A stretch of DNA of 64,000 nt from a virus: IMG/VR virus record IMGVR_UViG_3300020182_000007. The stretch is one strand, 5' to 3'. Positions 22,029 to 42,784 of the stretch are shown here, piece after piece. A program made the translations under genes and the position numbers. The stretch's first letter is position 1. The number at the start of each line of letters is the position of its first letter. The notes under the pieces are model-generated. The model was not told where the DNA came from. It was given only the letters and a program-made list of their open reading frames with translations, and ran no database searches.

Positions 22029-22352
22029 TTAATGTATTACAGTTATACTTCCACTTTTAATGATAGCTTCATTATATCCTCTACATTTCATATAAAATCT
22101 ATAAACATATATTGTATCAAAAGGTAAACCATCCCACCAAACATTTGGATTACTTGACTGAAATACTTGAATACCTGACCTATCATAGATTTCTAAATTG
22201 TAATCTTTAACATTAAGGGTATCTCCAAACTCTGGTTTCCATGTATCATTAATGCCATCACCATTAGGTGTAAATGCATTTGGAATGTAAACTTCTTGAG
22301 ACATTGCATTCATACTAAATACTAATGCTGCTATTGTAATTATCTTTTTCAT
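22029..22352 (-). CDS. secreted stand-alone T9SS type-B sorting domain (gliding-motility-associated CTD) protein
   Basis: Signal peptide MKKIITIAALVFSMNAMS/Q, then IPNAFTPNGDGINDTW...IYDRSG...WDG...YVY...SGSITVI. Confidence 0.85.
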   Translation of the reverse strand: MKKIITIAALVFSMNAMSQEVYIPNAFTPNGDGINDTWKPEFGDTLNVKDYNLEIYDRSGIQVFQSSNPNVWWDGLPFDTIYVYRFYMKCRGYNEAIIKSGSITVIH

Positions 22353-22359
22353 ATTTTTT

Positions 22360-22435
22360 AATTATAGTTAAATATAATCAATTTTATTGATATAAAAAAC
22401 TTTTGTTGAAATGATTTTAAAAAGTTATTAACAAT
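22360..22435 (-). repeat. early-promoter repeat element, diverged copy
   Basis: Both ends conserved, middle diverged. Confidence 0.8.
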
Positions 22436-22498
22436 TAGCAGCAGTTGGTTGGGAGTCAACATTCCATTGATCGTCCCAAAATATAATTTCATCTTCCA

Positions 22499-37990: not shown

Positions 37991-38173
37991 TTAGTTTATA
38001 AGTTGGTGAAACGCTTTGTGATATGCATTAAGCAACGTAAATTCTTTATCGTCCTTTCTGGATTCCCATATTTCTTCAGCTAATATTACAAGTTCCTGCG
38101 ATATACCATATGCTCTCGCCTCTTCTCTAATCTCTTCTATAATTATCTGTTCCGAAAGAGTTGGTAGTTTCAT
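37991..38173 (-). CDS. small helical protein, 60 aa
   Basis: ORF; shares the IEEI...A..GI...LA...Y.KAF..L.N pattern with its neighbour. Confidence 0.7.
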   Translation of the reverse strand: MKLPTLSEQIIIEEIREEARAYGISQELVILAEEIWESRKDDKEFTLLNAYHKAFHQLIN

Positions 38174-39435
38174 TAAAATAGGTTATTTAAGTTTTTAGTT
38201 AAAGTTTTGTCTTTTGTTTCATTCTTTTTGCCAACTAATTTCATTGGCTTTTTAGTTTCGGGAATATCCATACCAGAGAATGGATCCATTCCTGCAGGGT
38301 TATTAGATCCTTCTAACCATCCGGTTCCTTCTAAAATAGTGTCTTTATTAAATAAGATGCTTATGTTTTCAACAGCTCCTTCCCATTCAGAATCAATCTC
38401 TTTGTAGATGGCCTTCTGTATTGAATCCGGTATAATCTCGTTATGCAAAACCATTAATGATATATTATTATTAAGAGCCGCTTTGATTATATTAGGTGTA
38501 CTCTTACCAATAACCCTGTGAATGATATCAGATACAATTTGCTTTTGAGAATCTTTAAATAAGTATTCAATTGAAAAGGTGTCAAATTCTTTAACATATT
38601 GATCCCATATTTTGTGAGCCATTTTGTCAGTAATAGAATAGTTTCTTAATTTACCGTCTTTCATTTCTTTTTGCCAAGTAACTACTGATGGTATATTATC
38701 GCTACTGTCTCCAACTAGAACTTTTTTAAAGATGAACTCATCACAATCAACTTCTGTAATTTCAATTTTATTTTTTTGAATCCATTCTAGAACCTGATGT
38801 TGATAGTCATCTCGTTTTAAATGAGATCCTCCCATGTTAAATAACATATCATCGTCTGTTAGTTTAGAAGATTCAGTGTTTTCCATATCCTGCTTAAATC
38901 CTTGATATGTATATAAAGACTTTCTAGAATTATAGAACCAAAGAGTATGAGCATCGTTTGCTTTAGAATGATTTACTAATTGAATTAAATCTCTATCACC
39001 TGACCAAACAATACATGATTTACCTCTGTCATTTAGTGCAACTGACCAACCAAAAATAACATCATCTGCTTCTGCGCCCTGTGTTTGCTGTACTGTAACT
39101 CCACGCGACTTAAGTATTTTTTGCCATTTTTCATAAACATCATATACATTAGACCATTCTACTTCTGTGCTTTGCTTTCTAGTGCCTTTATAATCTGCTG
39201 CTGGAAAAAGATCCTTTCGCCATGATTTTGAATCAACTGTCAGTACGACGTCATCTACAAATCCTTGTAGTTTTCGCATTTCAGATGCAAAGTCAAGCGA
39301 TAGTTTACGCATAAATTGCGCCTTTTGAGTATCATCTCCTAGAAGTTTGCCAGTGTTAGGCCTAGGCATAACAAATAATCTACTAAAAATAAAGTAATTG
39401 CCGTCTATTAATAATGTATGTCTTCCCACTTTCAT
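38173..39435 (-). CDS. rnh: 5'-3' exonuclease / RNase H (T4 rnh, FEN-like)
   Basis: LLIDGN, SWRKDL, YKGTR, EADDVI, SGDRDLIQL and GDSSDNIP. Confidence 0.9.
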   Translation of the reverse strand: MKVGRHTLLIDGNYFIFSRLFVMPRPNTGKLLGDDTQKAQFMRKLSLDFASEMRKLQGFVDDVVLTVDSKSWRKDLFPAADYKGTRKQSTEVEWSNVYDVYEKWQKILKSRGVTVQQTQGAEADDVIFGWSVALNDRGKSCIVWSGDRDLIQLVNHSKANDAHTLWFYNSRKSLYTYQGFKQDMENTESSKLTDDDMLFNMGGSHLKRDDYQHQVLEWIQKNKIEITEVDCDEFIFKKVLVGDSSDNIPSVVTWQKEMKDGKLRNYSITDKMAHKIWDQYVKEFDTFSIEYLFKDSQKQIVSDIIHRVIGKSTPNIIKAALNNNISLMVLHNEIIPDSIQKAIYKEIDSEWEGAVENISILFNKDTILEGTGWLEGSNNPAGMDPFSGMDIPETKKPMKLVGKKNETKDKTLTKNLNNLF

Positions 39436-41035: not shown

Positions 41036-42784
41036 TTATTTCATTAGTCTTTTAAATTTTTGTGCTACTGATTCGTTAACATATACTGAATCATTTATAC
41101 CTGAGGTTCCTTTGTCTTTACCTGAAGTTCCTTTGTCTTTACCTGAAGTTCCTTTGTCTTTACCTGAAGTTCCTTTGTCCTTGCCGCTAGTTCCTTTGTC
41201 TTTACCTGAAGTTCCTTCGTCCTTGCCGCTAGTTCCTTTGTCCTTGCCGCTAGTTCCTTTGTCTTTACCTGAAGTTCCTTCGTCCTTGCCGCTAGTTCCT
41301 TTGTCTTTACCTGAAGTTCCTTCGTCCTTGCCGCTAGTTCCTTTGTCTTTACCTGAAGTTCCTTTGTCCTTGCCGCTAGTTCCTTTGTCTTTACCTGAAG
41401 TTCCTTCGTCCTTGCCGCTAGTTCCTTTGTCTTTACCGCTAGTTCCTTTGTCCTTTGCCGCTTCTTTTTCCTTAGCTTCTTTTTCCTTAGCTTCTTTTTC
41501 TTTCTTTAATTGATCAACAGCATCTGCTTGTTCTTCTTTATTAGGTTCCATATCCTTTAACGCACTTTCTTCATCGCGAAGTCTTGCCTTTAAGTTAGCC
41601 GCTGTTTTTTTAAGTTCGCCCTTATCTGAACCTTCTTCACCCATTGCAGTTTTAAGAACGGATAGCTCTCCTTTAATCTTTTCAGATTGTTTTGCTTTTT
41701 TAACAATATTGCCCTTATCATCCCATCTGTCATTTACAGAAGATTGTAAGTCTTTAGATTGCGCCTTCATCATGTCTACCTTCGCCTTAAGCTTATCTTT
41801 TACAGGCTTCTCAGCATCAGATGCTGCTATTGATGCTTCCATACCTGCAATTTTTAATTTTAGCTTATTAACTTTATCTTGGGCCTTTCTAGCCTTAGGT
41901 GCTCTAATCATAAAATCAATTGCACTTTTCATTGCGCCATCAGCTTCAGTAACTACTGATTCCTTTACGAAATTCTTAAGATCATCTGGATCTATAGAGT
42001 ATTCCACTTCATCCGCATCACTCCAAAGAATAACTTCATCTTTACCAATTTCGTAAATTTCGAACGATGAGTTTTTTAAGATTTCAGATCCATCAACGTC
42101 GTTAGTTTTATCATAAACATCTCCATCAAAATTATCGCTATCTTTTTTGGCTTTAATATACTGTCCTTTTTTAAATTTAGCTTCGTTAACTACTGATTCG
42201 TCTAGAGGATCTAATCCCCAGTAATTAGCCATATCATATCTTACTGGATAAATGTAATAATCTCCAACATTACCTTCAGGTGATTCAATATTTTTAGTAA
42301 GATAATAATCTGTATTTACCATTAATTCTTCAATCCCATAATCTTCAGCATCTTCTTTTGTTTCTTTCTTAAACATTTTAGCAATTTTAGCAAATCTACC
42401 AATAGCAATTATTTCTACAACGTTGTCATTATAATCGACACCAGTATCTCCAACTTTTAAATCTCCTGAAGCTTCAGTAACTACTGATTCACTAAATAAT
42501 CTATTACCAGTATTATCTTCTAAGAGAGATGAAGAAATATAAAATATAGAATTGGCAAAATCTTCAATTACTGAATCTTCTTCTGACATTTCTATATCCT
42601 CAACAATACTTGCTGATAGCTTTTTAAGGTTTAATAAAATATTGTCGACGTCTCTGATTGCTTCTTTTTTAGAATCTCCTACTTTAACCTCAGAGCTCGA
42701 TGTGTTAGAATCAGCAGAAGGTCTAGTTTGAGTTGCTTCTTGGTTTTGAAGTTCTTCGAATAGTAAAACTTTTTTAAATTTCAT
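41036..42784 (-). CDS. putative capsid-packaged polyprotein with ESVV(T/N)EA linkers and C-terminal heptapeptide repeat
   Basis: Leader KKVLLFEEL; three ESVV(T/N)EA linkers; 17x KD(K/E)GTSG; late promoter at 42820-42827. Confidence 0.75.
   Translation of the reverse strand: MKFKKVLLFEELQNQEATQTRPSADSNTSSSEVKVGDSKKEAIRDVDNILLNLKKLSASIVEDIEMSEEDSVIEDFANSIFYISSSLLEDNTGNRLFSESVVTEASGDLKVGDTGVDYNDNVVEIIAIGRFAKIAKMFKKETKEDAEDYGIEELMVNTDYYLTKNIESPEGNVGDYYIYPVRYDMANYWGLDPLDESVVNEAKFKKGQYIKAKKDSDNFDGDVYDKTNDVDGSEILKNSSFEIYEIGKDEVILWSDADEVEYSIDPDDLKNFVKESVVTEADGAMKSAIDFMIRAPKARKAQDKVNKLKLKIAGMEASIAASDAEKPVKDKLKAKVDMMKAQSKDLQSSVNDRWDDKGNIVKKAKQSEKIKGELSVLKTAMGEEGSDKGELKKTAANLKARLRDEESALKDMEPNKEEQADAVDQLKKEKEAKEKEAKEKEAAKDKGTSGKDKGTSGKDEGTSGKDKGTSGKDKGTSGKDKGTSGKDEGTSGKDKGTSGKDEGTSGKDKGTSGKDKGTSGKDEGTSGKDKGTSGKDKGTSGKDKGTSGKDKGTSGKDKGTSGINDSVYVNESVAQKFKRLMK
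41099..41455. repeat. 21-bp tandem repeat x17 encoding KD(K/E)GTSG
   Basis: Direct reading of sequence and translation. Confidence 0.95.

Follow-up and report, generated by a model that had tools for sequence, protein, structure and literature searches.

A passenger-less type-B sorting domain in marine phages and its possible role as a decoy of the host T9SS

Results

The locus described here lies in a window of 64,000 nucleotides, the whole stretch of DNA that was analysed, which belongs to an IMG/VR virus record of 148,784 nt that is ~49% complete according to CheckV. With genes for a contractile tail sheath and a T4-type large terminase, the record is evidently a tailed phage; its GC content is ~32% and nearly all of its genes are on one strand. 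At the locus is a gene for a 107-aa protein (Table 1), with DUF6445 and KTSC proteins encoded upstream, a metallophosphoesterase and an exonuclease downstream, and tail-module genes ~2 kb away. The nearest relatives of the terminase are found in uncultured 460-640-kb phages, Sphingomonas phage PAU, Tenacibaculum phages PTm1/PTm5 and Flavobacterium phage MaF61. These relatives, together with a leader that follows the Q-rule (see below) and a domain confined to Bacteroidota, point to a marine Bacteroidota host. Elsewhere in the window, 17 in-register copies of a 21-nt period were observed inside a 582-aa ORF, where they would encode a heptad-like 7-residue protein repeat.

Table 1. Positions of the features discussed in the text. 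Positions without a prefix refer to the window; prefixes name other loci.
Feature	Position	Strand	Basis or remark
CDS, 107-aa cargo-less type-B CTD protein	22029..22352	-	Stop codon 22029-22031; ORF and profile matches
Sec/SPase I signal peptide, predicted, residues 1-19	22296..22352	-	Sequence features, invariant Q19, pLDDT <50 over residues 1-17
Mature 88-aa domain, complete CHU_C / TIGR04131 beta-sandwich	22032..22295	-	Profiles, model, alignment, fold matches
Diverged copy of ~83-nt intergenic repeat, GTTAATAAC ... TGATTATATTTA-ACTATAAT-TAAAAAA	about 22354..22436	-	Ends 1 nt before ATG
ATP-dependent DNA ligase	10487-11776		Preceded by the same repeat
Sigma-70-family gene (regions 2 and 4)	15558-16166		Preceded by the same repeat
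5'-3' exonuclease (flap nuclease)	38173-39435		Preceded by the same repeat
582-aa ORF	41036-42784		21-nt period at 41043-41539
Tandem 107-aa and 110-aa CTD genes	L170:8001-8690		Same layout in L171
Bare CTD gene in L182	L182:795-1127		
976-aa type-B cargo in L182	L182:1674-4604		
Small Cys-rich lipoprotein beside bare CTD	L177:3792-4043, L182:562-798, L170:8687-8941, L169:1524-1736		
Leader + type-B CTD ORF in LR756502.1	L162:2971-3336		
'Mini-cargo' IMG/VR loci	L009, L011, L012, L019, L021, L026, L030, L032, L066, L071, L074, L079		
93-aa CHU_C open frame in a Flavobacteriales genome	G016:C15:81892-82158		

The original prediction described the protein as a Sec leader, cleaved before a Gln, joined to a gliding-type CTD without a passenger, and this is borne out by the ORF, by both domain profiles and by Gln19. 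PF13585 (CHU_C, Pfam) matched residues 22-88 with 52.6 bits (cut-off 27, E 5.1e-14) and TIGR04131 ('T9SS type B sorting domain', NCBIfam) matched with 43 bits (cut-off 35); no PHROGs family matched the protein. An in-frame TAA is located four codons 5' of the ATG, so an N-terminal extension of the protein is impossible. The leader opens with an MKK n-region, continues with a hydrophobic core of 11 residues and ends at an A-x-S/Q site (..NAMS/QE), with the cleavage site predicted by reading the n/h/c regions together with sequence rules. All 24 aligned homologues have Gln19, and the predicted Gln at the mature N-terminus fits the Bacteroidota 'Q-rule', by which a Gln is exposed after cleavage of the signal peptide (PMC5837995). 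The opening motif of the CTD, Y-I-P-N-A-F-T-P-N-G-D-G, begins 3 residues past the predicted cleavage site, which leaves no passenger, and the last strand runs to the stop codon, the domain being the extreme C-terminus. The mature product is predicted to be an intact type-B sorting domain of 88 residues and nothing more, and the signal peptide supports its putative targeting to the envelope.

The residues that are invariant in the phage family (P24, F27, P29-G33, N35, W73, G75, Y84 and G101) fall in columns conserved in 74 bacterial type-B CTDs, which suggests that the recognition motifs are what selection keeps. Every column conserved across these 74 CTDs is retained in the 107-aa protein, as compared in the alignment of this study, and the elements kept include PNAFTPNGDGxND, WDG, Y-x-Y and the G-x-hydrophobic C-terminal strand. 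Motifs A-E of type-B CTDs, as defined by Paillat et al. 2025, are reported to be needed for secretion. Two subtypes were found among the phage proteins. In the 107-aa subtype the loop between WDG and the Y-x-Y strand has 5 residues fewer than its counterpart in bacterial CTDs, the R-W-G motif reads R-S-G (the common Trp being replaced) and the terminal residue is His, not Arg, whereas the 110-aa subtype has a full-length loop after W-D-G and the usual terminal Arg. Both are encoded in tandem in L170 and L171, where the 110-aa gene begins 33 nt after the 107-aa gene. This suggests two different targets; subtypes side by side are expected if each addresses a different partner.

An AlphaFold2 model built from a 24-sequence alignment had a mean pLDDT of 79.7. 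Residues 20-107 form a beta-sandwich, with 10-residue blocks from residue 21 onward averaging pLDDT 74-94, and residues 1-17 are disordered (pLDDT <50). A Foldseek search of the PDB with this model returned no match below E 0.001. Compared via the model, the domain matched the translocon-bound NucA CTD (8glk_D) with a Z of 8.0 and an rmsd of 2.2 over 72 residues. Further matches were 8glj_D, 8gl8_D and 8gl6_D, and all four are type-A CTDs trapped in the F. johnsoniae SprA-PorV translocon; other T9SS CTDs scored Z 6.4-7.2, and the CTDs of PorZ, mirolase, RgpB and PorU were among the fold matches. One caveat is that this comparison is with type-A CTDs, there being no type-B CTD structure to compare with, and that generic Ig-like, FN3 and PKD domains scored about as high (middling Z), so it supports the fold class only. 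Of solved structures, only the C-terminus of the Aureispira grappling-hook protein GhpA is related in sequence. It was also observed that the N-terminal half of CHU_C (query residues 24-75) has matches at 24 distinct places in one protein of 4065 aa (P0053) and at 6 in each of two further proteins, so this half-domain also exists as an internal repeat.

The original prediction placed the gene directly behind an early-promoter repeat, and the repeat itself stands. The ~83-nt element is present in at least 10 copies within the window, with more elsewhere in the record, and 3 exact copies of its 26-nt core occur where 0 are expected by chance. Support for the word 'early' is indirect. The same repeat precedes the sigma-70-family, DNA ligase and exonuclease genes listed in Table 1 and several small ORFs, which would suit a pre-late promoter class because the phage sigma factor must be made before what it transcribes, and T4-type late promoters (TATAAATA) have only 4 copies on the gene strand, too few to separate the repeat by timing. 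A similar element lies upstream of the CTD gene in the nearest relative (L163, protein 94% identical). Most other orthologues have no such repeat, and there the gene comes straight after another small ORF; with the repeat missing upstream in these relatives, the promoter appears to belong to the source phage and not to the CTD gene family.

Orthologues of the gene were recovered at both the protein and the DNA level. A word-indexed search gave 24 clusters of 94-116 aa with 55-99% identity, mostly from marine metagenomes including Tara, and DNA-level searches gave 4 IMG/VR loci and ~21 metagenome loci. A megablast search of the phage collection with the region had no match, and a protein search of the same collection found no cultured carrier of the gene, only three uncultured records. 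Across more than 25 orthologous loci on phage-like contigs the length is 107-116 aa, and every complete orthologue has the leader, Gln, then Glu, Asp or Asn, then the CTD. The IMG/VR orthologue contigs have other genes in common with the source phage in shuffled order, which indicates that they are related phages with plastic accessory regions. Over 201 pairs with dS <1.5, pairwise Nei-Gojobori estimates of dN/dS had a median of 0.34, and most of the informative pairs fell within 0.08-0.35. Purifying selection thus keeps the bare CTD in a lineage of myoviruses of marine Bacteroidota.

The surroundings of the gene are less constant. No conserved partner gene was found in the source phage, and there was no recurrent ~300-aa neighbour across 25 loci; one recurrent neighbour of 322-350 aa is, by its N-terminal motif, a candidate thymidylate synthase. 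In several relatives a small Cys-rich lipoprotein gene (70-84 aa, lipobox ..L-x-G-C or S-S-C) directly adjoins the bare CTD gene, and near this pair is a gene for a protein of 105-109 aa that combines a signal peptide with hydrophobic segments. Neither protein had a Pfam match or a homologue in the 148.8-kb record. In L182, a gene for a 976-aa type-B cargo lies three genes downstream of the bare CTD gene, and this protein has a signal peptide, sub-threshold SprB-repeat and PKD-like matches and a type-B CTD. In the source record itself, ~49% complete, a profile scan found no second CHU_C domain, no type-A CTD (PF18962) and no PorP/SprF match (PF11751). The absence of PF18962 and PF11751 is weak evidence given the completeness of the record and the fact that the PF11751 profile was silent in PorP control genomes too.

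The frequency of bare type-B CTDs was compared between viral and bacterial DNA. The IMG/VR scan for bare forms used a motif inside the domain and was therefore not biased by the leader. The first scan returned 87 stretches, of which 80 were kept, and 6 of these 80 were bare (the four orthologues, L010 and L025). The second scan, for a third bare subfamily, added L192, L193, L195/L196 (185 and 294 kb), L198 and L199 (165 kb), and taken together the two scans gave 112 complete distinct CHU_C ORFs, 11 of them <=125 aa. A leader + type-B CTD ORF of ~116 aa from its Met was also found in LR756502.1, a 642-kb uncultured huge phage; this phage and LR745206 have three CHU_C-like places each, and their terminases are among those closest to that of the source phage. 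An exhaustive HMMER search gave 29,048 representatives at E <0.001, and the top 150 of these included several more leader + CTD clusters of 108-118 aa (P0054, P0137, P0147, P0118 and P0194), some on contigs up to ~44 kb and ~125-167 kb. A survey of stand-alone TIGR04131/CHU_C domains in phages, which the original prediction had proposed, has thus located bare families in L010, L025, L192, L193, L195/L196, L199 and LR756502 as well. Many other viral contigs encode type-B proteins of ~180-200 aa or 300-1600 aa. Frequent on phage contigs is a 'mini-cargo' form of ~176-196 aa, made up of a signal peptide, a ~80-aa Cys-containing module and a type-B CTD.

On the bacterial side, no direct fusion of signal peptide and CTD was found among the 80 bacterial genome loci most similar to the bare query; 3 of these 80 were 130-145 aa with short acidic or low-complexity linkers. 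In 41 Flavobacteriales genomes there were 20-89 CHU_C matches each, and only 2 of the 150 best matches were in open frames <130 aa, of which the first is located at a contig edge and the second has 93 aa. The latter was observed in G016, where a CHU_C match of 100.9 bits fills a 93-aa open frame without room for a signal peptide; this may represent either a damaged gene or a bacterial bare CTD that has no leader. These comparisons, which are semi-quantitative, point to an enrichment of bare type-B CTDs on phage DNA.

Discussion

Across the Bacteroidota, gliding, adhesin display, polymer degradation and virulence depend on the T9SS, and we know of no natural protein inhibitor of this system. 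Type-B CTDs take Sec-exported proteins through the SprA/Sov translocon with cognate PorP/SprF barrels (PMC9143113, PMC12618676); they are uncleaved and stay bound to these barrels, which either serve as their anchors or pass them on to the gliding track (PMC9143113). At native level the shuttles can hardly be detected, they seem to work stoichiometrically with their substrates, and over-produced type-B substrates or reporters remain unsecreted unless extra shuttle is supplied (PMC12618676). This literature on scarce, stoichiometric shuttles would make titration by a competing CTD feasible.

The bare CTD probably acts through the T9SS. More specifically, the gene product may be an inhibitory substrate mimic, or decoy, of the host T9SS, as the original prediction also proposed, a reading to which a probability of roughly 45% is given. 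The 88-aa domain would be recognised in the periplasm like the tail of a SprB-type adhesin and would engage the SprA translocon together with a PorP/SprF-family shuttle. If strongly expressed, it would fill or cap shuttles or anchors of one class, and possibly the translocon, and such blocking would be expected because an uncleaved CTD stays on a shuttle that is itself in short supply. In that case, host type-B cargo that depends on this shuttle would fail to be exported, anchored or put onto the gliding track. The phage would probably profit from a changed surface of the infected cell, with T9SS-dependent receptors lost or masked and/or gliding arrested, and receptor loss would in turn exclude other phages and reduce the loss of progeny on infected cells or debris. 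Where the 107- and 110-aa subtypes are co-resident, they would address different shuttles. The premise of the original prediction that gliding and T9SS mutants of Flavobacterium are often phage resistant agrees with the literature, as mutations of this kind lead to phage resistance in F. columnare and F. psychrophilum (bioRxiv 10.1101/2020.10.02.323337, PMC9804748).

Several observations complicate the decoy reading. The pairing of CTD and shuttle is highly specific in published work, which is an objection to the idea. The minimal type-B secretion signal is 150-235 aa (PMC12618676), and the shorter 88-aa domain may bind poorly or may not enter the translocon. The shortened loop, the R-S-G motif and the terminal His of the 107-aa subtype would also count against a decoy. 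With 20-89 CHU_C matches per host genome, and 14 PorP/SprF matches in one MAG of the likely host type, one decoy cannot blanket all of them. The 976-aa cargo encoded in L182 indicates that the lineage uses the T9SS too and does not only block it, and the near-bare forms with short linkers in bacterial MAGs make a native cellular role for such mini-proteins possible.

One alternative, considered unlikely, is that the bare CTD is secreted and plugged on the outer face of a PorP/SprF-type FadL-like barrel. The barrel or its rider would be the phage receptor, and the gain would be direct masking of it (superinfection exclusion), not depletion of shuttles. Type-B CTDs do stay on PorP-like surface barrels, and PG1035 has been proposed as a 'cap for PorP' (PMC9143113). 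In the relatives, the adjoining Cys-rich lipoprotein and the nearby leader-bearing membrane protein form a layout typical of envelope-modifying exclusion modules, although the lipoprotein neighbours are absent from the source phage record. A mature domain of 88 aa is also smaller than the minimal secreted type-B signals.

It is improbable that the protein has nothing to do with the T9SS and is a small exported or virion-associated Ig-like calcium-binding domain for glycan or cell wall, its likeness to a CTD being a matter of ancestry. The beta-sandwich is generic, with middling Z against many Ig-like, FN3 and PKD domains, and in the source phage the tail-module genes are close by. However, selection preserves the canonical set of CTD motifs, the conserved Sec leader argues against virion assembly, and in relatives the gene is located among small accessory ORFs and not among structural genes.

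There is even less to be said for an accessory factor that primes, opens or recruits a shuttle or translocon for type-B cargo of the phage itself. The bare CTD and the 976-aa cargo of L182 are three genes apart and numerous viral contigs carry genes for type-B cargo of 180-1600 aa, but the source record (~49% complete) has the bare CTD only, most orthologue loci have no cargo nearby, and a competing CTD more likely hinders than helps. A poor prospect, too, is a periplasmic signalling ligand, in which the free CTD would bind a T9SS or envelope sensor and reprogramme host expression. The model for this is the CTD of PorA, which alone activates PorXY-SigP from the periplasm via PorY (PMC12152298) and so indicates that a CTD can act without cargo and without secretion. 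That CTD is of type A, though, no PorA/PorY-type link is known for type B, and the residues conserved in the phage family are general sorting motifs. The last reading, a decaying and functionless fragment of a captured host adhesin gene, had been named in the original prediction as a possible refuter and is rejected here as barely credible: phage accessory regions do collect host fragments and the neighbourhood of the CTD gene is highly variable, but the leader is fused exactly at the domain start in more than 25 loci with the length fixed at 107-116 aa, dN/dS is well below 1 and paralogues are retained in tandem.

The decoy reading may extend beyond this lineage. It is possible, if rather doubtful, that Bacteroidota phages of several unrelated lineages use passenger-less T9SS sorting domains as secretion-signal mimics that jam or re-address the T9SS and the gliding apparatus. 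If true, this would be an undescribed class of phage host-takeover or superinfection-exclusion factor, in which subtype diversity tracks the specificity of PorP/SprF shuttles, and secretion-signal mimicry would join the known ways in which phages remodel the host surface. There would be a connection, too, with the phage resistance of gliding and T9SS mutants in fish-pathogenic Flavobacterium. A minimal 88-aa CTD kept by selection would serve to probe which portion of the domain is enough for recognition and, if inhibitory, would be a genetic tool that switches off one branch of the T9SS.

The CTD studied here is a member of a known family; its cargo-less, phage-borne form and the proposed use are new. 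Above curated thresholds, the 107-aa protein belongs to the same family as the known type-B CTDs of F. johnsoniae SprB and Fjoh_3952 and of P. gingivalis PG1035, with which it has the C-terminal position, the Sec leader and the conserved motifs in common. It differs from them in being phage-encoded and without a passenger, in the loop that is 5 residues shorter and in its terminal His, and its mature 88 aa compare with the 150-235 aa required by known type-B reporters (PMC12618676). In contrast to canonical type-B cargo, it has no porP/sprF-like gene next to it, although such adjacency is common but not universal and 'orphans' exist.

The PG1035-PorP-PorE system of P. gingivalis provides a physical basis for a CTD that, whether or not it has been secreted, is held on a shuttle or anchor (PMC9143113). 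However, PG1035, a protein of ~50 kDa, is encoded by the host bacterium itself, carries a passenger and is not an inhibitor, whereas the phage CTD has no passenger. The PorA CTD and PorY are the precedent for a T9SS CTD that by itself functions beyond cargo carriage (PMC12152298), but the PorA CTD is type A, host-encoded and an activator of T9SS genes, and the phage CTD is type B. No report of a bare CTD as a competitor, of a cargo-less CTD or of a phage-encoded type-B CTD was found in the literature searched, in which a single report deals with T9SS cargo encoded by a phage. The cryoconite 'Cryophage' (Bellas et al. 2020, PMC7468147), described as carrying T9SS cargo with type-A CTDs and called 'a unique occurrence', is likewise a phage of a Bacteroidota host whose proteins include some with T9SS sorting domains, and these are presumed to exploit the secretion system of the host. 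Its CTDs are type A and sit on real enzymes (endoglucanase, GH39 and a PA14 protein), whereas the CTD of the source phage is type B and has no cargo. Among superinfection-exclusion proteins, T5 Llp and phi80 Cor block FhuA, and D3112 Tip and DMS3 Aqs1 block type IV pilus assembly. The logic proposed here would be alike, a small protein made during infection that acts against an envelope structure used for phage entry and surface motility, but these proteins have no sequence or fold relation to the phage CTD, and the mechanism proposed for the CTD is mimicry of a secretion signal and not a dedicated inhibitor.
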